From: an uncultured Verrucomicrobiae bacterium
Lineage (GTDB): Bacteria; Verrucomicrobiota; Verrucomicrobiia; Limisphaerales; UBA11358
Assembly: GCA_963786375.1 (NCBI GenBank)
Contig: CAWAYP010000001.1
Coordinates: forward strand, 107,169 to 171,168
Reading direction: 5' to 3'
DNA length: 64,000 nt
How positions within the stretch are numbered: position 1 is the first letter of the stretch; every line of letters begins with the position of its first letter. Positions 4,834 to 58,302 of the stretch are shown in pieces. The translations under genes were made by a program, and so were the position numbers. Below the pieces are notes generated by a model, which did no database searches, was not told the origin of the DNA, and saw nothing but the letters and a program-made list of their open reading frames with translations.

Positions 4834-5934
4834 TCAAACGACTTTTGTTTCGCCCCGGCCTTTGACGACTTCGCCAATCAGCCACGCCCGGTGTTTCTGC
4901 ACGCGGATGAAATTCAAAACCGCGTCCGCCTTGTCTGCCGATACGATGGAAACCATTCCGATGCCCATGTTGAAGACCTGGTAAAGCTCCGCGTCCAGCA
5001 CGCCGCCCTTGGCTTTGATGAGTTCGAAAATCGGTAGCATGTCCCATGACCCCTTGCGGATGACCACGTCGCAATTCTTTGGCAGCACGCGCGGAATGTT
5101 GTCCACAAACCCGCCGCCGGTGATGTGGGCGAAGGCTTTGACAACATTCTGGGAGGGTCGGCGTGTCGCCGACCGTGATTTTGGGGACGGCGGCACGCCG
5201 TCCCTCCCGTTGAATTGTTTCAACAGCTTCTGCACCAGCGGGCCGTAGCTGACGTGGGCTTTCAGCAATTCCGCGCCAATCGTGCCTTTCAATCCCGGCA
5301 CGCGGCTGGTTGGTTTCAATTTCAGTTGCTCGAAGAAAATTTTCCGGGCGAGCGAATAACCGTTCGTGTGCAGGCCGCTCGAGGCAATGCCGATGACCGC
5401 GTCGCCATGCTTCACGGTCTTCTGGCCGTTGAGCATTTTGGATTTTTCGACGACGCCGACAATCGTGCCGCTCACGTCGTATTCGCCCTTCTGGTAAAAG
5501 CCCGGCATCTGGGCCGTTTCACCGCCGATGAGCGCGCAATGATTTTCCGCGCACGCGCGGGCGAAACCCTTGATGATGTCGGTGAAAACATGCGGCTCCA
5601 GTTTGCCCGTGCCGAGGTAGTCGAGGAAGAACAGCGGCTCGGCCCCCAGCACGGCGATATCGTTGACGCAATGATTCACGAGGTCGGCGCCAATGGTATC
5701 GTGCCGGTCCATCGCGAAGGCGATTTTGAGCTTGGTGCCGACGCCGTCCACGGACGAGACGAGCACCGGCTCGCGATATTTTTTCAGATCGAGCGCGAAC
5801 AGGCCGCCGAAGCCACCGACCTTGCCGAGCACCTCGCGGCGATGCGTGGACGCAAGCAAATGCGGCAGCGTGGCCTTGACCTTGTTGCCCAAATCAATAT
5901 CCACACCCGCGCGGGCGTAAGCCTTCTGTTTCAT
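4834..5934 (-). CDS. purM: phosphoribosylformylglycinamidine cyclo-ligase (AIR synthetase)
   Basis: YARAGVDIDLGN..., GGFGGLF, DGVGTK, AHITGGGFVDNIPRVLP and FNMGIGM are PurM hallmarks. Carries a 20-aa in-frame insert (see repeat 5151-5208). Confidence 0.95.
   Translation of the reverse strand: MKQKAYARAGVDIDLGNKVKATLPHLLASTHRREVLGKVGGFGGLFALDLKKYREPVLVSSVDGVGTKLKIAFAMDRHDTIGADLVNHCVNDIAVLGAEPLFFLDYLGTGKLEPHVFTDIIKGFARACAENHCALIGGETAQMPGFYQKGEYDVSGTIVGVVEKSKMLNGQKTVKHGDAVIGIASSGLHTNGYSLARKIFFEQLKLKPTSRVPGLKGTIGAELLKAHVSYGPLVQKLLKQFNGRDGVPPSPKSRSATRRPSQNVVKAFAHITGGGFVDNIPRVLPKNCDVVIRKGSWDMLPIFELIKAKGGVLDAELYQVFNMGIGMVSIVSADKADAVLNFIRVQKHRAWLIGEVVKGRGETKVV
5151..5208. repeat. composite palindromic element, family A, lying inside purM
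   Basis: GGGAGGG-TCGGCGtgtCGCCGA-CCGTGATTTTGGG-GACGGCGgcaCGCCGTC-CCTCCC. The outer 7-bp inverted repeat encloses two short GC hairpins. purM reads it as GRDGVPPSPKSRSATRRPSQ. Confidence 0.85.
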
Positions 5935-5984
5935 CTGCGGACATTAAATCGGCAAAATGGTTTGCGGGCGAGAAAATTTAAGTT

Positions 5985-6044
5985 GGGAGGGACGGCGTGC
6001 CGCCGCCCCAATCAAATCAGGGTCGCCGACACGGCAACCCTCCC
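5985..6044. repeat. composite palindromic element, family A, at the 3' end of the ygfZ-like gene
   Basis: GGGAGGGACGGCGTGCCGCCGCCCCAATCAAATCAGGGTCGCCGACACGGCAACCCTCCC. The last residues of ORF 6017..7300 (GGLPCRRP-stop) are encoded by it. Confidence 0.85.
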
Positions 6045-7300
6045 ACAAATGGAATTTCCACAATTTTTGCAGAACCTTCGCCCACCGCCGTTTGCAGAAT
6101 CAGTTCGGTTCCGATTTGCTTGGCTTCGCGGCGGACATAACCCAGCGCAATAGTTGCGTTGAGCACCGGTGATTTTACGGCACTGGTGATGTAGCCCATT
6201 TCCTTGCCGTCGCGGAAGAGCTTGTCGCCACGGCGCGGCAAGGATTTCAAATCATCGGCCAGGCGCAGGCCGCGCAGTTCACGCGTGACGTGGCCGAAGC
6301 TGTGGATGCGGTTGATGACTTCCTGTCCGATGTAACAACCTTTGTTGTAAACCACCGCGCGGTTTTCAATGCCGCATTCGAGCGGCAGATTCGTTTCGTC
6401 CATGTCCACCCCGAAGCAGGGAATGCCCGCCTCGATGCGCGCGGTCTCGAACGCCCGCCAGCCACAAGCCCGCCCGCCTTCGCGCTGCTTCGGCGCGACA
6501 AGCCCGCCGGTTTGTTTTGCCGCGGCAATAAGCTTGTCCGCCACCGCGCCGAGTGAGGAATTGGGGACGAAAAGATCAAAGCCACTCAAAATATTTTCCC
6601 CCTCTCCTCCATGAAATGGAGGAGAGGGCCGGGGCGAGGAGGTGAAATGTTGCCCCTCGCCCTGACCCTCTCCCCGTTTGGCGGGGAGAGGAAATGGACT
6701 TAATCGCGGCTGGTTCATCAAATAAATTTCGCCAAGCGTGGCATCGGAAATTTTCACCGAATCGAGCGGTTTCGTTGGAATTTCAGGGAACAATCCAATC
6801 GCGCGCACAACCTCTTCCGCCTTCGGCCCCTGCACGCTCAACAAACCGTAATGCGGCGCGGCGTCCACGATTTGCACGTCGTCGGCAACAACGAACTTTT
6901 CCAGTCGCTGCCAGATCTTCTCCGTCAAACCGGGCTCAAAATCGAGAAGCAATTCATCCGGCAAATTAAAAATGTTCAGGTCGCTTTCCATTTTGCCCCT
7001 GGCGGTGACGAGCGCCGCATAGCAGCCTTCCCCGGCACGCAGTTTTTTTACATCATTCGTCACCTGGCCGTGCAGAAACCGGACGCGGTCGGTGCCGGTC
7101 AGGCAAATCCGGCTGCGAAAACTCAGGTCCAAGACGCCCGAGCTTTGGCACAGCGCGGCGTGTTCGGCCAGCCAATCGCCGTAATCATTCACGATTTCCG
7201 CGCCGTTCACTTCCACAAATCGCGCGCCCAGCCTTTGGTGAAATTCGTGCAGCATCATTGACATGATTCCATTGTAGCGGCGGTCTGCGACTGTCGCCAT
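6017..7300 (-). CDS. folate-binding YgfZ / aminomethyltransferase (GcvT)-like protein
   Basis: GcvT-fold motifs: LDLSFRSRICLTGTDRVRFLHGQVTND, GCYAALVTARGKM, and the YgfZ-type KGCYIGQE. The start could be an internal Met near 7264. Contains a ~37-aa in-frame repeat insert. Confidence 0.8.
   Translation of the reverse strand: MATVADRRYNGIMSMMLHEFHQRLGARFVEVNGAEIVNDYGDWLAEHAALCQSSGVLDLSFRSRICLTGTDRVRFLHGQVTNDVKKLRAGEGCYAALVTARGKMESDLNIFNLPDELLLDFEPGLTEKIWQRLEKFVVADDVQIVDAAPHYGLLSVQGPKAEEVVRAIGLFPEIPTKPLDSVKISDATLGEIYLMNQPRLSPFPLPAKRGEGQGEGQHFTSSPRPSPPFHGGEGENILSGFDLFVPNSSLGAVADKLIAAAKQTGGLVAPKQREGGRACGWRAFETARIEAGIPCFGVDMDETNLPLECGIENRAVVYNKGCYIGQEVINRIHSFGHVTRELRGLRLADDLKSLPRRGDKLFRDGKEMGYITSAVKSPVLNATIALGYVRREAKQIGTELILQTAVGEGSAKIVEIPFVGGLPCRRP
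6597..6692. repeat. multi-hairpin palindromic element, family B, inside the ygfZ-like gene
   Basis: CCCTCTCCTCCATgaaATGGAGGAGAGGG ... GGGGCGAGG...CCCCTCGCCC ... CCTCTCCCCGtttgGCGGGGAGAGG. Translated in-frame as LSPFPLPAKRGEGQGEGQHFTSSPRPSPPFHGGEGE. Confidence 0.8.
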
Positions 7301-10054: not shown

Positions 10055-10122
10055 CAAAAGAAACGAAGGTAACAAAGGTGGAAATTTACAGACCAGGATC
10101 CCTTGTTTCCTTCGTTACCTTC
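10055..10122. repeat. long hairpin (GAAGGTAACAAAGG ... CCTTCGTTACCTTC) spanning the PAP2 stop codon
   Basis: The arms at 10055-10068 and 10109-10122 are complementary at 13 of 14 positions. The right arm encodes the PAP2 C-terminal tail (..QKVTKETRDPGL). Confidence 0.6.
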
Positions 10123-10772
10123 TGTTGAATTTGCCTCTCTGAATCAAAACTTTTCCCGGCCACGGTTCCGATGACCGACCCAATAATGGCCCCGGCCACG
10201 AAATCCGAGAACCAATGAATGGTCATGGAGACCCCAATGCCGACGTAGAACGCATAAAGGATCGCCACCAAACCCAGCCAGCGCGGTTTCGGATGTAGGG
10301 TGAAGACCGTCACGGCCATGGCAAAAGCGATGGTGGTGTGCGACGACGGCCAGCCCCAGAAAACCCCGCCGCGCAGAAAGCCGAAGTGGAAAACACGGCT
10401 GATGTCCGCGCCGACATCGTGCGCCGGATGGGCGCGGCCGGTAAATGCTTTGTAGGCGACCACAACCAATGCCCCGAGAAGTTCAGCCTGACCGATGGCC
10501 CAGCCGGTCAGAATGACCTTCGCATTTCGAGCCACGATGCCGAAGGCAAAAAGGATCAGCGGCAAGGCGAGCGGCAGCAGCGCGCCAATTCCGACGGCGG
10601 GCCACATCCAGGAACGCAGCGCCGGATTGCGCGTGGCGAGGAACCAGCGCCAGTCGAAGCCGGACATGACCAGGATGAACGTGAGCAGGATGGCGATGAC
10701 ATGCCAGATGAGCCTCCGGCCCGTGAAGCAGCCGATGAGGTTGCGGGGCAGCGTCACCAGAAATTGTTTCAT
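10086..10772 (-). CDS. PAP2 family phosphatase (membrane)
   Basis: The three PAP2 motifs are present in order: KAFTGRAHP, WPSSHT and SMTIHWFSDFVAG. Polytopic membrane profile. Confidence 0.8.
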   Translation of the reverse strand: MKQFLVTLPRNLIGCFTGRRLIWHVIAILLTFILVMSGFDWRWFLATRNPALRSWMWPAVGIGALLPLALPLILFAFGIVARNAKVILTGWAIGQAELLGALVVVAYKAFTGRAHPAHDVGADISRVFHFGFLRGGVFWGWPSSHTTIAFAMAVTVFTLHPKPRWLGLVAILYAFYVGIGVSMTIHWFSDFVAGAIIGSVIGTVAGKSFDSERQIQQKVTKETRDPGL

Positions 10773-10780
10773 GCAGAACT

Positions 10781-10843
10781 GGGAGGGACGGCGTGTCGCC
10801 GTCCCAAATCAAAAATTGGGGCCGCCGACAGGGCAGCCCTCCC
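10781..10843. repeat. composite palindromic element, family A, intergenic between ftsK and the PAP2 gene
   Basis: GGGAGGGACGGCGTGTCGCCGTCCCAAATCAAAAATTGGGGCCGCCGACAGGGCAGCCCTCCC. Confidence 0.85.
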
Positions 10844-10849
10844 ATTCAA

Positions 10850-13624
10850 TTACACCGCTTCCTGCCCGCCGCCGTCCGCGCCCGTGCCGTCCAGATCAAT
10901 CAGGATGTCGCGCGGCTCGGCGCCTTTGCTGGGGCCGACGATGCCGCGGTTTTCCAGTTCGTCCATGATGCGCGCGGCGCGGGTGTAGCCGAGGCGCAAC
11001 CGGCGTTGCATCAACGACACGCTCGCCTTTTGTTCGCTGCGGATGACTTCGATGCACTGCTGGATGAGTTCCTCGTCCTCGTCAATGCCGGTTTCGTTTT
11101 CAAAATTGGCCGCGGGCTGGGAAAGTTGCCGGTGGATTTCCAGGTCGTAGTTCGGCTTGCCCTGCTTGGCGATGAACTCGACGATGCTGTTGATTTCCTG
11201 GTCGGTAATGAGCGCGCCCTGGGCGCGTATCAGTTTCGCCGAGCCGGGCGGCAGATACAGCATGTCGCCCTTGCCGAGCAATTTGTCCGCGCCCATCGCG
11301 TCGAGAATCGTGCGCGAATCCACGCGCGAGGCGCACTGGAACGCAATGCGCGCGGTGATGTTGGCCTTGATGACGCCGGTGATGACGTCCACGCTCGGCC
11401 GCTGCGTGGCGACGATGCAATGAATGCCCGCCGCGCGTGCCATCTGGGTGATGCGGGCGATGGCCATTTCCACGTCGGCGGGCGCCACGAGCATCAGGTC
11501 CGCCAGCTCGTCAATGATGACGACGATGTAGGTCAGTTTTTCGGGAATGACGATGTCGTCGTCGCGCGGCACGACGATTTCCTCGTCCACTTCCACCGCG
11601 AACCCTTCCGCGCCCGGTTCGACTTTTTCCTTTTTGGCCTTGAGCGGCAGTTCCAATTCCTGCTGCGGCAGCGGCTTGTTCTTCGGGCGCGAATTGAAGG
11701 AGCCGATGTTGCGGACGCCGACCCGCGCGAAAATCTGATAGCGCTTTTCCATCTCATTGACGACCCAGCGCAGCGCGAGGATGACCTTTTTGGGATCGGT
11801 CACCACCGGCACGACGAGGTGCGGCAGGGCGTTGTATTGCTGCAACTCGACGACCTTGGGATCAATCATCACAAACCGAAGCTGGTCGGGCGAAAACTTG
11901 TAGAGCAGCGACGTGATGATGGAATTGATGCAAACGGATTTGCCGGAGCCGGTGCTGCCGGCAATGAGGATGTGCGGCATTTCCGACAGATCAGCGACAA
12001 TCGGATGACCATAAACGTCCTTGCCCAGCGCGATGGGAATTTTTGCCTTGGAATTGCGCCATTCGTCCGATTCAAACAAATCGCGCACGATGACCTTGGT
12101 CTTGACCGGGTTGGGCACCTCGACGCCGACGGAGCTTTTGCCGGGCACGGGCGCGAGGATGTGGATGCGCTCGGCCTTGAGCGCGGCGGCGATGTTGTTG
12201 GACAGCGCGGTGATTTTTTCCAGCTTCACTCCGGGCGCCGGATGCAATTCGTAGCGCGTGATGGTCGGGCCTTTGGTGATGTCCCCCAGCGAAACCTCGA
12301 TGTCGAACTGCGCGAGCGTCTGCTGCATTAGCCGCGCGTTGGCCATCAATTCCTCCTTCGATTCGGTGGGCTTTACCGTCGTGTCGGGATGCTGGAGAAA
12401 ATCCAGCGGCGGCAACTGGTAATTGCCGATGATGGGCGTCGAAGCGACGGTGATGGGTTTGGGCCGCTTCGGTTTTGTCCTGGATTTCGCCGACACGGAA
12501 TTGTCCGCAATGTGAACCACCGGTTCGGCGGGCTTTTCCGGCTCAATTTTTTCCGGTTCCCCGATTTTGGTTTCCGCCGATTTTTCCGCGGCCGGTTCTT
12601 CCCCGAGAATGTCCCCGGTGGTCGCGGCGGGAACCTCACGCGGGAGAATGGCTTCCGCTTCACCGGCGGACGCGGGCTTGGGTCCCGGCCCCGGCGGCGG
12701 GGCTTCTTCGCCGCGGGCGGGTTCTCTGATCACGCCGCCGGGCAAGGTGGTTTTGCGGATGCGCGCGGACGTGGCAGGTGCGGGTTTGGCCTGCGGCACG
12801 CTCAAATCCCGGACGGTGGGTTCGGGAACGGGTTGCATATCCGCGCCCAGTCCGGTGCGCGCGACTTCTTCCTGCAACTTTTGGGCCTGCTTTTCCAATT
12901 CACGCGCCCGGCGCTCCAGCGCGCCGTCCCCGGCGGGTTCCGGTTCGGCGCCGTCTCCGGCGGGCACCTTCTCCACCAGACCGCGAATCCATTCGCCCAG
13001 CCGGAAATTGGTCAGGAACAGCAGGCTGATGAGGCAAAGCGCCGCGTAAACAATGATCGCCCCGGCCGTGCCGAGCAGGCAAAAACCATATTCATAGCGT
13101 GGCGTCTGGCCGAAGGTCAAAAACCCGAGCCAGCCGCCCGCGCTTAACGAACCGATGGTTTCATGGATTTTTCCAAGCCAGCCGGCGTTGTCCAGGATGT
13201 AGAGCAGGCCGGTAAGGGACAGCACCAGCGTGGCTGACCAGATCAACGACCATTGCAAACGCTCCCGCAAATGGCTGGGAAAGTTGAGCAGATAAGCCAG
13301 CCCAAAGACGGCGAGCAGCACGGGCAAAAGGTAGGCAACCAAACCAAACGGGATGAACGAGGCCCACGCCAGATAGGCGCCGAGCGGGCCAATCCAGTTG
13401 TGCGTGGGCTTGTTCAACTGCGTGGTCAGGAAGGAAATGTCATTGCGGTCAAACGACCATTGCGCCACCAGCAGCAACAGCGCCGCGGCGAGCAGCGCCA
13501 CGCCGATGATGTCGCCGAAACCGTGGGTGGAATTCGATGGCGTCTTGCGTGACATGGCCGCAGCGTAACAATTCAACGGGGCAACTTCAAAGTTGAAAAT
13601 ACCCGTCCGCTTCGCGGAACTCAT
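10850..13624 (-). CDS. ftsK: DNA translocase FtsK
   Basis: N-terminal TM block, Pro/Glu-rich linker, motor domain with Walker A (LIAGSTGSGKSVCIN) and Walker B (VVIIDELADL), and a C-terminal gamma/winged-helix domain (ASVSLMQRRLRLGYTRAARIMDELE). Alternative start at ATG 13555 (MSRKTPSN). Confidence 0.93.
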   Translation of the reverse strand: MSSAKRTGIFNFEVAPLNCYAAAMSRKTPSNSTHGFGDIIGVALLAAALLLLVAQWSFDRNDISFLTTQLNKPTHNWIGPLGAYLAWASFIPFGLVAYLLPVLLAVFGLAYLLNFPSHLRERLQWSLIWSATLVLSLTGLLYILDNAGWLGKIHETIGSLSAGGWLGFLTFGQTPRYEYGFCLLGTAGAIIVYAALCLISLLFLTNFRLGEWIRGLVEKVPAGDGAEPEPAGDGALERRARELEKQAQKLQEEVARTGLGADMQPVPEPTVRDLSVPQAKPAPATSARIRKTTLPGGVIREPARGEEAPPPGPGPKPASAGEAEAILPREVPAATTGDILGEEPAAEKSAETKIGEPEKIEPEKPAEPVVHIADNSVSAKSRTKPKRPKPITVASTPIIGNYQLPPLDFLQHPDTTVKPTESKEELMANARLMQQTLAQFDIEVSLGDITKGPTITRYELHPAPGVKLEKITALSNNIAAALKAERIHILAPVPGKSSVGVEVPNPVKTKVIVRDLFESDEWRNSKAKIPIALGKDVYGHPIVADLSEMPHILIAGSTGSGKSVCINSIITSLLYKFSPDQLRFVMIDPKVVELQQYNALPHLVVPVVTDPKKVILALRWVVNEMEKRYQIFARVGVRNIGSFNSRPKNKPLPQQELELPLKAKKEKVEPGAEGFAVEVDEEIVVPRDDDIVIPEKLTYIVVIIDELADLMLVAPADVEMAIARITQMARAAGIHCIVATQRPSVDVITGVIKANITARIAFQCASRVDSRTILDAMGADKLLGKGDMLYLPPGSAKLIRAQGALITDQEINSIVEFIAKQGKPNYDLEIHRQLSQPAANFENETGIDEDEELIQQCIEVIRSEQKASVSLMQRRLRLGYTRAARIMDELENRGIVGPSKGAEPRDILIDLDGTGADGGGQEAV

Positions 13625-21149: not shown

Positions 21150-22325
21150 ATGAGCAAAAACTTCATATTTTCCTCGGAGTCCGTCGGCGAAGGCCATCCG
21201 GACAAGGTTTGCGACACCATTTCCGATTACGTGCTGGACGCCTGTCTGGCGCAGGACCGGCACAGCCGCGTGGCCTGCGAAACCTACGCCAAGAGCAACC
21301 TCGTGGTGGTCGGCGGCGAAATCACGACCAAGGCCAAGCTCGATTTCAGCGCCATTGCCCGCCAGGCCATTCGCGACATCGGCTACACGCACGACGACGA
21401 CGTGTTTCACGCGGACAAGGTGCTCATCATGAACGCCATCACGTCGCAATCGCCGGACATCGCCCAGGGCGTGGACGCGCGCAAGGCGGTCGGCAAGAAG
21501 AAGGCCGAGCAGGGCGCCGGCGACCAGGGATTGATGTTTGGCTACGCGACGACGGAAACGCCCGAACTGATGCCCGCGCCCATCATGTACGCCCACAAGC
21601 TGGGCCGAGCGCTGACCCAAATCCGCAAGAGCGGCAGGGTCGCGTGGCTGCGGCCCGACGCCAAGAGCCAGGTATCCGTCCGCTATGTGAACGATCAGCC
21701 GGTGGCCATCACCAATGTCGTCATCTCCACGCAACACGCGCACGATGTGAAGCACAAGACCATCGAGGAATTTTGCATCGAAGAAGTCATCAAAAAAGTT
21801 TTGCCGAAGCGTTTGCTCACCAAAAAGACGCTGTTCCTCATCAATCCGACCGGCCGGTTCGTCGTCGGCGGACCGCAGGGCGACACCGGCCTGACCGGGC
21901 GGAAAATCATCGTGGACAGCTACGGCGGAATGGGCCGTCACGGCGGCGGCGCCTTCAGCGGCAAGGACCCGTCGAAGGTGGATCGCAGCGCGGCCTACAT
22001 GGGCCGTTATGTCGCCAAGAACATCGTGGCGGCGGGCCTGGCGACGAGCGCGGAAATCCAGTTTGCCTACGCCATCGGCTATCCCGATCCGGTCTCGGTT
22101 TGCGTGAACACCTTCGGTACCGGTATGGTGAGCGATGAGGCCATTGAAAAGGCGGTGGCCGAGGTGTTCAGCTTCAAGCCCGCCGATATCATCAAACAAC
22201 TCAACCTGCTCCGGCCGATTTACGCCCGGACCACCAACTACGGTCACTTCGGCAAGAGCGATCCCGCGATCACCTGGGAAAAAACGGACAAGGTCAAAGA
22301 ACTCAGGCGTGCTTTAAAAATATGA
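21150..22325 (+). CDS. metK: S-adenosylmethionine synthase
   Basis: [53 protein letters not shown]: canonical MetK. Confidence 0.97.
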
Positions 22326-22799
22326 GTTTCAAGTTTGAAGATTCAAGTTTCAAGAAAAGCGGATTTCGTCAGCTTGAAACTTCCAACTTGATCGCTTGAA
22401 ATTTTAGTATGGCTTATCACTCGTTTGAAGATTTGGAGGTGTGGAAGCGCGGCTGTCGTTTGGCGGTTGAAGTCAGCCGGACGCTTGCCAAAACCCGCGA
22501 GTATTTTGTTCGCGACCAGATGCAGCGCGCGGCACTTTCCATTCCTTCCAACATTGCGGAAGGCTCGGAACGCGACAGCAAACTTGATTACATTCGCTTT
22601 CTTCGCATTGCCAAGGGTTCGGCGGCAGAGCTTCGAACACAGTGCTACATTGCGGCCAAACTCGAAATCTTAAAGAAGACTGACGCGGATCGTGTTGTCA
22701 CCGAGTGCAAGGAAATCGCCCCTATGTTGCAAGGATTGATTCGCGCCATTGGATGGGTGACAGCTCTCACTTGAAGCTTGAATCTTGAAACTGAAAACT
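22326..22799 (+). mobile_element. four-helix-bundle gene cassette bounded by imperfect inverted TTCAAG/CTTGAA-rich flanks
   Basis: The left flank 22326-22354 is GTTTCAAGTTTGAAGATTCAAGTTTCAAG. The reverse complement of the right flank (22775-22799) reads ...GATTCAAGCTTCAAG, matching the left GATTCAAGTTTCAAG at 14 of 15 positions. It fills the whole metK-ahcY spacer. Mobility is an inference. Confidence 0.45.
22409..22774 (+). CDS. four helix bundle protein (23S rRNA intervening-sequence protein family)
   Basis: FEDLEVWKRGCRLAVEV ... IPSNIAEGSERDSKLDYIRFLRIAKGSAAELRTQCYIA is the family signature; ~120 aa. Confidence 0.85.
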   Translation: MAYHSFEDLEVWKRGCRLAVEVSRTLAKTREYFVRDQMQRAALSIPSNIAEGSERDSKLDYIRFLRIAKGSAAELRTQCYIAAKLEILKKTDADRVVTECKEIAPMLQGLIRAIGWVTALT

Positions 22800-33543: not shown

Positions 33544-35782
<2,239 letters not shown>

Positions 35783-54678: not shown

Positions 54679-55740
54679 ATGATTATGAAAATTGCAGAAC
54701 AAAATTTTGGCGTGTTGCCGGTAACAAATCAGTCGGCAACGTTGGATGCTGAGTCCACAGTCCACAGTGAGCCAGTGTCGGACGGGCCGTTGCTCGACGC
54801 GTATTCCAACGCCGTCGTCAATGCGGCGGAGACGGTCAGCCCGTCGGTGGTGAAGATTGATGTGCGTAAAGGGGGGGCACGAGGCACGAGGCCCGAGGCT
54901 GGTGGCAGCGGGTCGGGTTTCATCATCACACCGGACGGTTTCGCCCTCACCAACAGCCACGTTGTCCACGGCGCGGACCGGATTGAAGTCACGCTGGCCG
55001 ATGGCCGGCATCCCGACGCGCAGGTCATCGGGTCGGACCCGGACACGGACCTGGCGGTCATCCGCATTTACGCGCCGGACCTCAAGCCGGTGCGCCTCGG
55101 CGATTCGAACCGGTTGCGCGTGGGCCAGCTCGCCGTCGCCATCGGCAATCCATACGGGTTTCAATACACCGTGACGGCGGGCGTGGTGAGCGCGCTGGGC
55201 CGTTCGTTCCGGTCCAGTTCGGGCCGGCTCATGGACAATATCATTCAGACCGACGCCGCGTTAAATCCGGGCAATTCCGGCGGGCCGCTGGTCAATTCGC
55301 GCGGCGAAGTCATCGGCGTCAACACGGCGGTGATTCTGCCGGCGCAGGGGCTTTGCTTTGCCATCGCCATCAACACGGCCAAATACATCGCCGGCTGGTT
55401 GATCAAGGACGGCGTCATCCGGCGCAGTTATATCGGCGTGGGCGGGCAGACGGCGAAAATCCATCGGCGGCTGGTGCGGTATCACAATCTGCCGTCGGAA
55501 ACCGGCATGCTGGTGATCAGCGTCGAGCCGGGCAGCCCGGCGAGCCAGGCCAGCCTGCGCGAGGGTGATATGATTGTGGAATACGGCGGACAAGCCGTCA
55601 CCGGCATTGACGAACTGCACAAATTGCTGACCGGAGAACAGGTCGGGGTGCGTTCGCCGATTGTGGTGTTGCGGGGCACGGAGAAGTTGCGCCTGGAAAT
55701 CGTGCCGCAGGAATCCGGCGCGCGGTTGATGCTGAATTAA
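54679..55740 (+). CDS. HtrA/DegP-like S1C serine protease with a PDZ domain
   Basis: GSGFIITPDGFALTNSHVV (His), DTDLAVI (Asp), NPGNSGGPLV (Ser), and a C-terminal PDZ (GDMIVEYGGQAV). Start at ATG 54679 following GGGAG. Confidence 0.88.
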   Translation: MIMKIAEQNFGVLPVTNQSATLDAESTVHSEPVSDGPLLDAYSNAVVNAAETVSPSVVKIDVRKGGARGTRPEAGGSGSGFIITPDGFALTNSHVVHGADRIEVTLADGRHPDAQVIGSDPDTDLAVIRIYAPDLKPVRLGDSNRLRVGQLAVAIGNPYGFQYTVTAGVVSALGRSFRSSSGRLMDNIIQTDAALNPGNSGGPLVNSRGEVIGVNTAVILPAQGLCFAIAINTAKYIAGWLIKDGVIRRSYIGVGGQTAKIHRRLVRYHNLPSETGMLVISVEPGSPASQASLREGDMIVEYGGQAVTGIDELHKLLTGEQVGVRSPIVVLRGTEKLRLEIVPQESGARLMLN

Positions 55741-56910: not shown

Positions 56911-58302
56911 ATGAACGCCGCCGACCGCGCCAAACTCATCCGCGATTCACTCCCGCCGGGTGGTTTGTTTGCCAATCAAGACTGGCATACTTCGCCGGCG
57001 CCATTTCCGCTCGGTGAAAATCTGGCGAAGGAAATCGAATCACTGGGCCGCGTGTTGCTGCAATTCTATCGCGCGGTCAATCTGCTTTACCGGCGCAGCG
57101 TGGAAGGAAAACAGCCGGCGTGGATTGCGGATTTGCTGGACCACGGCAAGCCCGCGGAATTGATTGAGTTTCAGCGTTCGCCCGCGTTCAAGAATGACGT
57201 GCCGCGCGTCATCCGGCCCGACATTTTACTGACGGAAAACGGACTTGGCATCACCGAACTCGACTCCGTGCCCGGCGGCATCGGCTTGACGGCGTGGCTT
57301 GGGCGGACGTATTCCAACCTTGGGAGGGACGGCAGGTTACCGTCCCAAACTTTGGAAACGTCAACGGATAAATCAGGGACGGCGACACGCCGTCCCTCCC
57401 AGGAGATCATCGGCGGCGCGGATGGAATGATTCATGGTTTTGAAAGCATCTTTGGTGACGCGAAACAAATCCACATCGTCGTTTCCGAGGAAGCCGCGAC
57501 TTACCGGCCGGAAATGGAATGGCTGGCCGGACAATTTGAAGATTCAAGATTCAAGATTCAAGATTCAAAATTTGAAAGCTTCGCCGATGGTGATGCGGTT
57601 TACCGGTTCTTTGAACTGTTTGATCTGGCGAACGTCCCGAATGCAAAAAAAATCTTTGAACTGGCCGCTGGAAAAAAAATCCGGCTGACACCGCCGCCCA
57701 AGCCGGTTTTTGAGGAGAAGCTGTTGTTCGCGCTTTTGTGGAACCGGAATTTGCGCGAGTTCTGGCGGCAGGAACTGGGTGAGGGATTTTTATCGCGTCT
57801 GCAAAAATTGATTCCCTACACGTGGGCGGTGGATCCGGCGCCGCTGCCGCCGCACGCGGCGATTCCCGGACTGAATCTTACCGACTGGCGGCAACTTAAG
57901 GGCTTGTCCCAAAAGGAGCGCGAACTGATTTTGAAGGTGTCCGGTTTTTCCGAGCACGCGTGGGGCGCGCGCGGCGTCCATCTCGGCAGCGATTTGGCGC
58001 AGGCGGACTGGAGCGCGGCAGTGGACCGGGCCATTGCAGGCTTTTCGACTTCGCCGTTTGTGTTGCAACGTTACGAAAAACCGAAACTGGCCGAGGCGCA
58101 GTGGTTTGATTTTGACAAGAACGTCCTCGTGCCGATGAAAGGCCGGGTTCGGTTGTGCCCGTACTATTTTGTGGCCGGCGAAGGCGACGCGGCGCGTCCG
58201 CAACTGGGCGGTGTGCTGGCAACCATTGTTCCCGCCGATAAAAAAATTGTTCACGGCATGAGTGACGCAATTCTCGCGCCGTGCGCCATTGAGCCGGGGT
58301 GA
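56911..58302 (+). CDS. ATP-grasp-like amidoligase (circularly permuted ATP-grasp / glutathionylspermidine-synthase-like)
   Basis: Overall layout and segments such as RPDILLTENGLGITELDSVPGG, ILKVSGFSEHAWGARGVHLG and VLQRY suggest this superfamily. Not verified. Carries two in-frame repeat inserts. Confidence 0.6.
   Translation: MNAADRAKLIRDSLPPGGLFANQDWHTSPAPFPLGENLAKEIESLGRVLLQFYRAVNLLYRRSVEGKQPAWIADLLDHGKPAELIEFQRSPAFKNDVPRVIRPDILLTENGLGITELDSVPGGIGLTAWLGRTYSNLGRDGRLPSQTLETSTDKSGTATRRPSQEIIGGADGMIHGFESIFGDAKQIHIVVSEEAATYRPEMEWLAGQFEDSRFKIQDSKFESFADGDAVYRFFELFDLANVPNAKKIFELAAGKKIRLTPPPKPVFEEKLLFALLWNRNLREFWRQELGEGFLSRLQKLIPYTWAVDPAPLPPHAAIPGLNLTDWRQLKGLSQKERELILKVSGFSEHAWGARGVHLGSDLAQADWSAAVDRAIAGFSTSPFVLQRYEKPKLAEAQWFDFDKNVLVPMKGRVRLCPYYFVAGEGDAARPQLGGVLATIVPADKKIVHGMSDAILAPCAIEPG
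57322..57400. repeat. composite palindromic element, family A, inside the ATP-grasp gene
   Basis: GGGAGGGACGGCAGGTTACCGTCCC...CAGGGACGGCGACACGCCGTCCCTCCC. Read in-frame as GRDGRLPSQTLETSTDKSGTATRRPSQ. Confidence 0.85.
57541..57568 (+). repeat. (GATTCAA)x4 microsatellite inside the ATP-grasp gene
   Basis: gattcaa x4 within TTTGAAGATTCAAGATTCAAGATTCAAGATTCAAAATTTGAAAGCTTC. Translated as FEDSRFKIQDSKFESF. Confidence 0.85.

Follow-up and report, generated by a model that had tools for sequence, protein, structure and literature searches.

A palindromic repeat in frame in two genes of the window

The DNA analysed here (the window) is a stretch of 64,000 nucleotides (nt) from an uncultured Verrucomicrobiae bacterium of the order Limisphaerales. 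It corresponds to positions 107,169 to 171,168 of contig CAWAYP010000001.1 (C1:107169-171168) in a 3.04-Mb genome of 17 contigs (GCA_963786375.1). Positions 57322-57400 hold a 79-nt copy of a palindromic repeat, which lies in frame inside a forward-strand open reading frame (ORF; 56911..58302) for a conserved protein of 463 amino acids (aa), where it makes up residues 138-164. The copy is translated as GRDGRLPSQTLETSTDKSGTATRRPSQ, with SNL before it and EIIGG after it, and the surrounding translation reads SNLGRDGRLPSQTLETSTDKSGTATRRPSQEIIGG. Its parts, all on the forward strand, are the 5' arm GGGAGGGACGGCAGGTTACCGTCCC, an A-rich spacer of 29 nt and the 3' arm GGGACGGCGACACGCCGTCCCTCCC. The 5' arm (57322..57346) is a GGGA tag with the hairpin GGGACGGCAGGTTACCGTCCC, whose stem has partly decayed, and reads G R D G R L P S. 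The spacer (57347..57375) is common to nine orthologous copies and, among the 144 pooled copies described below, occurs only at the 463-aa gene site. The 3' arm (57376..57400) is a consensus hairpin, GGGACGGCG-ACA-CGCCGTCCC, with a TCCC tag, and reads G T A T R R P S (Q).

A second in-frame copy of 58 nt lies on the minus strand (5151..5208) within purM, the gene for phosphoribosylformylglycinamidine cyclo-ligase (4834..5934, minus strand). This copy reads GRDGVPPSPKSRSATRRPSQ, and the purM ORF around it reads FNGRDGVPPSPKSRSATRRPSQNVVKAF. The original prediction, made from the letters and their ORFs, held that the 57322-57400 copy is in frame in the 463-aa ORF and that the purM copy, on the opposite strand, is read in the same frame of the element (GRDG...TRRPSQ). 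Both statements were confirmed by the translations. The description of the 463-aa protein as ATP-grasp-like was not borne out, as Pfam, NCBIfam and PDB sequence searches gave no significant match. An AlphaFold2 model of this protein, built from an alignment of 42 sequences, had a mean pLDDT of 48.6 and was too poor for a fold search; the insert region had the lowest confidence and no secondary structure, which in such a model is weak evidence.

Anatomy of the repeat

To describe the repeat we pooled 144 distinct two-arm copies; they come from the host genome, from eight relatives (98 loci) and from public metagenome-assembled genomes (MAGs; 80 loci). The repeat unit is a GGGA tag, found in at least 140 of the 144 copies, followed by a 21-nt hairpin with a 9-bp stem and a 3-nt loop, GGGACGGCG-TGY-CGCCGTCCC. 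The stem begins with GGG and the tail is GGGA/TCCC. Two such units in inverted orientation, with mutually inverted loops (GTGY and RCAC), flank an A/T-rich spacer of 6-35 nt, and the resulting doublet measures 50-112 nt with a mode of 57-63 nt. Two stem variants occur, X (ACGGCG) and Y (WCGCCG), and they combine into X-X (42), X-Y (56) and Y-X (42) dimers, with no Y-Y dimer; the purM copy is an X-Y heterodimer. The element as a whole is a near-perfect palindrome, so that every locus scores alike on both strands, and its A/T-rich flanks extend the palindrome, with TYY before GGGAGGG...CCCTCCC and RRA after it.

Base pairs covaried within the arms. Positions 8-22 were A-T in 104 copies and T-A in 24, positions 11-19 were G-C in 98 and C-G in 39, and 93.7% of the local stem cells were paired, with compensatory changes. 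Pairs between the arms did not covary, and position 11-15' was paired in only 44 of the 144 copies. Because covariation is found inside the arms and not between them, the arms appear to be two independent hairpins rather than one long hairpin. One long hairpin was the minimum-energy fold of both in-gene copies (RNA; -51.3 and -43.7 kcal/mol, z about -8), but as the general structure it was rejected in view of the covariation across the pool. X-X copies have both folds available.

Target-site duplications of 2-9 nt were looked for at offsets 0-5 of 143 copies, and there were none; direct repeats did not exceed those in shuffled controls. A search of Rfam 15 with the element matched no family and gave only hairpins resembling miRNA precursors, at 17-24 bits against cut-offs of 63-197; an Rfam scan of the whole window gave nothing at the element. 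We consider the 79-nt block to be probably a copy of a non-autonomous palindromic repeat of the repetitive extragenic palindromic (REP) or REPIN type, which is tolerated in linkers, is free of stop codons and is translated as a loop.

Terminal inverted repeats, small size, many interspersed copies and A/T-rich flanks are also what a classical miniature inverted-repeat transposable element (MITE) would present, that is, an element derived from an insertion sequence by deletion and mobilised in trans, its 25-nt terminal inverted repeats being bound by a DDE transposase. We regard this as very unlikely, given the missing target-site duplication and the self-complementary arms that covary internally and not with each other. 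In addition, no pair of arms 0.3-1.3 kb apart in the host genome encloses a transposase (purA lies within the only pair at 1.3 kb, and the others flank nothing coding), although the other genomes were not searched exhaustively for such pairs.

In-frame copies and their reading frames

The REP/REPIN-type repeat that we favour is not confined to the two genes noted originally. Genes were called from ORFs, a codon-usage score trained on the host genome, and Pfam. In this way 11 in-frame copies were found in genes of the host genome, and all of the genes except the 463-aa gene were confirmed by Pfam. Eight copies have two arms, and lie in purM, the 463-aa gene, a DUF255 thioredoxin-domain protein, DUF2851, the C-terminal region of an ABC-F protein, PrmC, RsmB and the activation domain of MetH. 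Three are single-arm or collapsed copies, in HisS, Mfd and CobA-HemD. Relatives were sampled only around arm matches, which makes intragenic shares outside the host genome lower bounds. Their Pfam-confirmed hosts include a DEAD/DEAH-box helicase, class III and class I/II aminotransferases, PyrD, aconitase, a DNA methylase, a Mur ligase, LigA and a HemN-like radical SAM protein. The sites in ABC-F, DUF255, DUF2851, MetH, Mfd, CobA-HemD and purM are orthologous between genomes, and merging such sites left 20 distinct gene sites across the genus. The original prediction had named, as one outcome that would refute it, that its two intragenic copies are the only ones, and these counts show that they are not.

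All three frames are used. The 5' arm was read in frame 1 (GRDG..) at 10 of the 20 sites, in frame 2 ((W/R)EGRR..) at eight and in frame 3 (GGT(A/P)C..) at two. For the 3' arm, readable at 17 sites, the corresponding counts were nine (..RRPS), six (..TPSLP) and two (..RRHAVPP). Frame 1 at both ends, as in purM and the 463-aa gene, is the commonest class (five of the 16 sites where both arm frames could be read), and not the rule. Over the 144 copies and both orientations, the share without a stop codon was 80% in frame 1, 75% in frame 2 and 61% in frame 3. Taken singly, the six frames were open in 51-81% of copies; the lowest value, 51%, belongs to frame 3 in the orientation with the T-rich spacer, because CCC-TGA arises there. 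Element lengths fell into the three classes modulo 3 at 56:48:40. Compared with the stop-free expectation, frame usage was not significantly skewed, either in a provisional set of 22 sites (12:8:2, p = 0.098) or in the 20 sites (10:8:2, p about 0.18 by hand recalculation).

These numbers speak against the explanations first offered for the shared frame, namely that only this frame and orientation is stop-free or that insertion is frame-biased. The shared orientation is not informative either, as the palindrome presents a GGGAGGG... 5' end on whichever strand is read. Since the element is a palindrome, any entry in phase 1 gives GRDG...TRRPSQ, whatever the strand of the gene. The agreement between the two copies thus reflects the symmetry of the repeat and selection against stop codons, and is not evidence of frame-directed insertion. 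What stands of the original idea is its general form, that only stop-free copies that keep the frame persist in genes; the unique frame and the biased insertion do not. The question of frame can therefore be answered in numbers: there is no privileged frame, and filters for stop codons and multiples of three act on a symmetric element.

Two observations concern individual genes. At CobA-HemD (C10:354505-354541) the host genome has a single composite hairpin, read as GRDGGTPSLP, and two relatives have the full doublet GRDVVSASQNFGDGGTPCFP (L100 in G004, L154 in G011), as if the doublet had collapsed in the host genome by deletion between the arms with the frame kept. The purA (C4:1400-2800) and ABC-F (C3:~102000-103500) genes are each split over two frames in the assembly, through either long-read homopolymer errors or real pseudogenisation, and single frameshifts in this genome call for caution.

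Copies lie in protein linkers

When PurM was aligned with PDB 2Z01, query residues 4-241 and 264-362 matched chain residues 5-241 and 242-340. The copy and its flanking residues thus form a 22-residue insertion between the adjacent residues 241 and 242 of 2Z01, right before the AHITGGG strand. Judged from Pfam domain limits, PrmC, Mfd and CobA-HemD carry their copies between domains, and the copy in the 463-aa gene lies in a linker between ...GLTAWL.TYS.. and IIGGADGM. At the codons where the element lies here, orthologues from the genus and from metagenomes have a different sequence or a short linker, both in purM and in the 463-aa gene. The shortest linker allele of the 463-aa gene has 30 nt against 111 nt here, and the difference of 81 nt equals the 79-nt element plus 2. 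On this evidence, the in-gene copies are insertions in linkers.

Arms are conserved alike at all codon positions

The 463-aa gene contains the element at the same codon, with the same 29-nt spacer, in ten orthologous copies. Besides the copy in the window these are nine other records: locus L026 of G013, a genome of the genus, and eight contigs from metagenomes, including two that are mutually identical. As the spacer is shared between these copies and found nowhere else in the pool, it points to one ancestral insertion at this site. The same comparison bears on whether the element could have arisen through an error of assembly or binning in a noisy long-read MAG. Frameshifted genes such as purA and ABC-F do occur in this assembly, but the element recurs with its spacer at this very codon in the nine other, independent records, and 13 genomes of the genus carry the family, so that an artefact has next to no chance of being the explanation.

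Among the ten copies, the mean identity of the arms was 92.9% over all 50 nt, and it was nearly the same at codon position 3 (92.0%) and at codon positions 1 and 2 (93.3%). At the 24 arm positions that were not fixed by the search pattern it was 90.4%. The spacer was 78.5% identical, and the flanking sequence reached 57-65% at third codon positions and 82-92% at first and second positions. Six of the ten copies share a site-specific double change, A-T for G-C, that keeps the stem. The single length change among the ten is of 3 nt. Because identity is equal over the codon positions, because the double change keeps the stem and because the arms are more conserved than flanking third positions, one of two readings is that the arms may be constrained as nucleic acid and not as protein; the other is that the allele spread recently by recombination.

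These data also bear on the idea that the peptide itself is selected, as a functional module GRDG...TRRPSQ that was recruited into several enzymes. The same peptide is indeed found in PurM and the 463-aa protein, and the in-frame state is kept across species. Against this, the three frames give unrelated peptides at different sites, the arms are conserved without regard to codon position, most copies are intergenic, and orthologues do with a different insert, or without one, at the corresponding site. We therefore consider selection on the peptide highly improbable, and continue to regard the element as a tolerated REP/REPIN-type insertion.

Variable linkers and mosaic genes

The linkers that hold the two copies vary strongly between species. 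At the purM site, different species have the GGGAGGG family, a sister family (GGGAGGGACGAG...CTCGTCCCTCC) or a short LVGKPDQ linker. Yet other species have at least three further hairpin families, one of them GTAG-tagged, or four-unit heptamer arrays in which the unit copies the local flank. The same range of occupants was found at the linker of the 463-aa gene among 96 orthologues. In one genome (G014), the sister family occupies both linkers (L057 in purM, L034 in the 463-aa gene). It may be, then, that such sites are taken by whichever family is active in the genome, although a single concordant genome pair is anecdotal.

On a tree of the 96 orthologues of the 463-aa gene made without the linker, linker classes were scattered, with 48 changes against a minimum of seven. 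Repeated insertion was tried as the explanation, as the family-1 allele alone shows 10 changes on this tree, at least eight of them forced by well-supported branches, but mosaicism undid this argument. In a sliding-window comparison of two orthologues, L305 (OBLU010031494.1, GGGAGGG family) and L353 (OBLU010086242.1, sister family), identity was 100% over 480 nt downstream of the linker and 78-90% upstream. We take both contigs to come from one metagenome (common prefix OBLU01), and the pattern stems either from recombination with its breakpoint at the repeat or from a strain-level bubble in the assembly. With a mosaic gene whose breakpoint lies at the linker, the tree cannot be used for counting insertions. 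The scatter of linker classes reflects recombination, at least in part.

Heptamer arrays were found at the purM linker in L060-L064, L068, L073 and L074, and at that of the 463-aa gene in L036, L037, L316, L342 and L360. An example is aaATTCAAC followed by three ATTCAAC units, where the unit repeats the adjacent host sequence. L342 has one heptamer unit, and the near-identical genes L321 and L310/L025 differ by exactly three units (21 nt). Such arrays could stem from slippage or from repeated 7-bp footprints. Tandem arrays of 7 nt are also frequent in the window (57539-57572, 22325-22354, 22770-22789, 33675-33696, 34120-34140, 54752-54768 and 54876-54899). The first of these, inside the 463-aa gene, contains 4.9 units of AAGATTC and is translated as DSRFKIQDSKF. 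Every orthologue has a segment with a period of seven residues at this site, each time with a different repeat (KFKIQNSKF, RFTVHDSRF, TFNLQPSTF and others). This suggests, from a comparison at the protein level, that a DNA repeat and not a peptide is kept there.

The conservation of the arms could also mean that in-gene copies have a function as nucleic acid and are maintained rather than merely tolerated, either as an mRNA hairpin (in decay, processing or ribosome pausing) or as a DNA site (used by a host protein or in recombination). Arm identity of about 90-93%, compared with 57-65% for flanking synonymous sites and 78.5% for the spacer, the double stem change kept in six orthologues, the very stable predicted RNA hairpins and the coincidence of the breakpoint with the linker would all fit such a function. 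Recent spread of an allele by recombination could lower divergence in the block just as well, Rfam has no match, and orthologues manage with unrelated inserts or none. On balance we find this function unlikely, but less so than a MITE or a selected peptide.

A more far-reaching proposal, which we put forward tentatively and hold to be unlikely, is that certain linkers (in purM after KKFN, in the 463-aa gene after TYS..) are true landing pads, where the active hairpin family enters or replaces the occupant. Arms would then be under selection at the DNA or RNA level within coding sequence, and alleles would be swapped between lineages by recombination that breaks at the hairpins. In that case the inserts would be a maintained, recombining nucleic-acid polymorphism and not passive, decaying passengers.

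Distribution and further copies in the window

With a profile made from 15 strict copies we found about 36 loci in the host genome, about 25 of them with both arms. Most are intergenic, and 11 of the 36 lie inside genes. The 25-nt arms numbered 34 in the host genome and 69 in a relative (G009). Of 25 genomes of the host's Limisphaerales genus, 13 had the arm pattern; 16 other genera of the order lacked it, and the reversed pattern, searched as a control, gave no match. A scan of public genomes found it in many MAGs from peat and soil assigned to Verrucomicrobiota, Verrucomicrobiae and Limisphaerales; we take a few matches in MAGs labelled as other phyla to be binning errors.

Within the window, the 12-nt arm core occurs six times against 0.6 expected, and none of 100 shuffles reached six. 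Two copies lie outside the genes discussed so far. One (5985..6044) lies between purM and a ygfZ/gcvT-like gene (6017..7300, minus strand), to which it gives the last eight residues and a TGA stop. The gene ends in ..VGGLPCRRP, as the copy is read in frame 3 and the TGA comes from its spacer. The other (10781..10843) is intergenic, between the minus-strand ORFs 10086..10772 and 10850..13624. Long ORFs over the copies, such as 5215..6153 on the forward strand, were rejected as antisense shadows on the basis of codon scores and neighbouring genes.

How the repeat may spread, and what weighs against a REP/REPIN-type origin

Copies of the repeat may have spread by a single-strand route that recognises hairpins, makes no target duplication and favours A/T-rich DNA. 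Copies that land in surface or inter-domain linkers, keep the frame and bring no stop codon would be tolerated, and these would be translated as loops of 20-27 residues rich in Gly, Arg, Pro and Ser. That they are translated is suggested by the intact frames and by insertions and deletions in multiples of three.

Several points weigh against this account. No mobilising enzyme was found: across nine genomes (the host and eight relatives), none of 22 PF01797 loci resembling Y1 transposases or REP-associated tyrosine transposases (RAYTs) has a copy within 1.5 kb. The RAYT-type Y1 transposase gene of the host genome (locus L001, C1:222279-222801) is flanked by a different REP, with a GTAG tag, as inverted copies TGTAGCGGCGGTCTGTGACCGCCGC and its complement. 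The tag of our family is GGGA, which is neither the GTAG nor the CGTC of described REPs (PMC3733652). We found no pair of near-identical genomes that differ by presence and absence of a GGGA-family copy. Finally, the high identity of the arms could in part result from recent spread of a linker allele by recombination, as the 463-aa gene is mosaic.

If the REP/REPIN-type reading is right, the family would be a well-documented example of selfish palindromic DNA translated inside core enzymes in a lineage other than Rickettsia and Proteobacteria. The constancy of the arms in coding sequence and the occupation of the same linker codons by unrelated repeats, if they reflect targeting or function, would bear on how REP-type repeats choose their sites and on how new protein-loop sequence arises. 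For annotation, such blocks are to be treated as repeat-derived inserts and not as lineage-specific protein motifs.

Comparison with known palindromic repeats

Among described repeats, the GTAG/CGTC REP dimers (Di Nocera, De Gregorio and Rocco 2013, PMC3733652) resemble the GGGA family in many respects. Both consist of a tag and a hairpin (8-9 bp in the GTAG/CGTC REPs) arranged as inverted dimers, both form homo- and heterodimers with alternative complementary stem residues, and both are mostly extragenic. In both, some dimers lie in known genes, where those of GTAG/CGTC REPs encode 20-30 residues, and some donate a stop codon to a neighbouring ORF. The highest numbers of intragenic GTAG/CGTC dimers are those of the verrucomicrobium Opitutus terrae and of Rickettsia conorii, and different REPs have been found at about the same recB site in two Xanthomonas species (PMC3733652). 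That study also describes REP families without a dedicated transposase, among them the CGTC REPs, which the GGGA family matches in this. The GGGA family differs in its tag, its 3-nt loop, its uncultured Limisphaerales host and its high intragenic share (11 of 36). CGTC REPs have a CGTC tag, an 8-9 bp stem that starts with A/T pairs, a loop of 4-5 nt and a CCA-like tail (PMC3733652), whereas the stem of the GGGA family starts with GGG, its loop has 3 nt and its tail is GGGA/TCCC.

The REPIN-RAYT system (Bertels and Rainey 2011, PMC3116915; Nunvar 2010) is likewise similar, in that an inverted doublet of REP hairpins is the replicating unit, no target is duplicated, and inheritance is vertical, with families conserved inside a lineage. 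As a REP or REPIN would be, the GGGA element is an interspersed hairpin palindrome in inverted doublets without target-site duplication. It differs in lacking the GTAG (GT[AG]G) tag and, at the 22 loci, a cognate RAYT flanked by units of the family, and REPINs are described as extragenic.

In behaviour only, the GGGA repeat is like the Rickettsia palindromic elements (RPEs; Ogata et al. 2000, Claverie and Ogata 2003, summarised in PMC2229807), which lie in frame in housekeeping genes of Rickettsia. In both cases a palindromic repeat in conserved housekeeping genes adds a tolerated surface segment, and for gmk with an RPE the protein is made and active (PMC2229807). RPEs have 105-146 bp and are specific to Rickettsia, whereas the GGGA element has 57-80 nt and two discrete hairpins and belongs to hosts of another phylum.

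Small repeats with open frames occur inside genes, and those with stop codons do not (PMC2229807). The 107-bp Correia/NEMIS element and ERIC/RU (Delihas 2008, PMC2229807) follow this rule, as repeats with an open frame are fused into genes and relatives with stops in all frames stay intergenic. This stop-codon filter is common to them and the GGGA family. Unlike the GGGA family, which has no target duplication, they have TA duplications and are thought to depend on a DDE transposase. We therefore file the GGGA repeat as a new family that works like a REPIN or an RPE, and its in-frame insertion in genes as an event already known for palindromic repeats.

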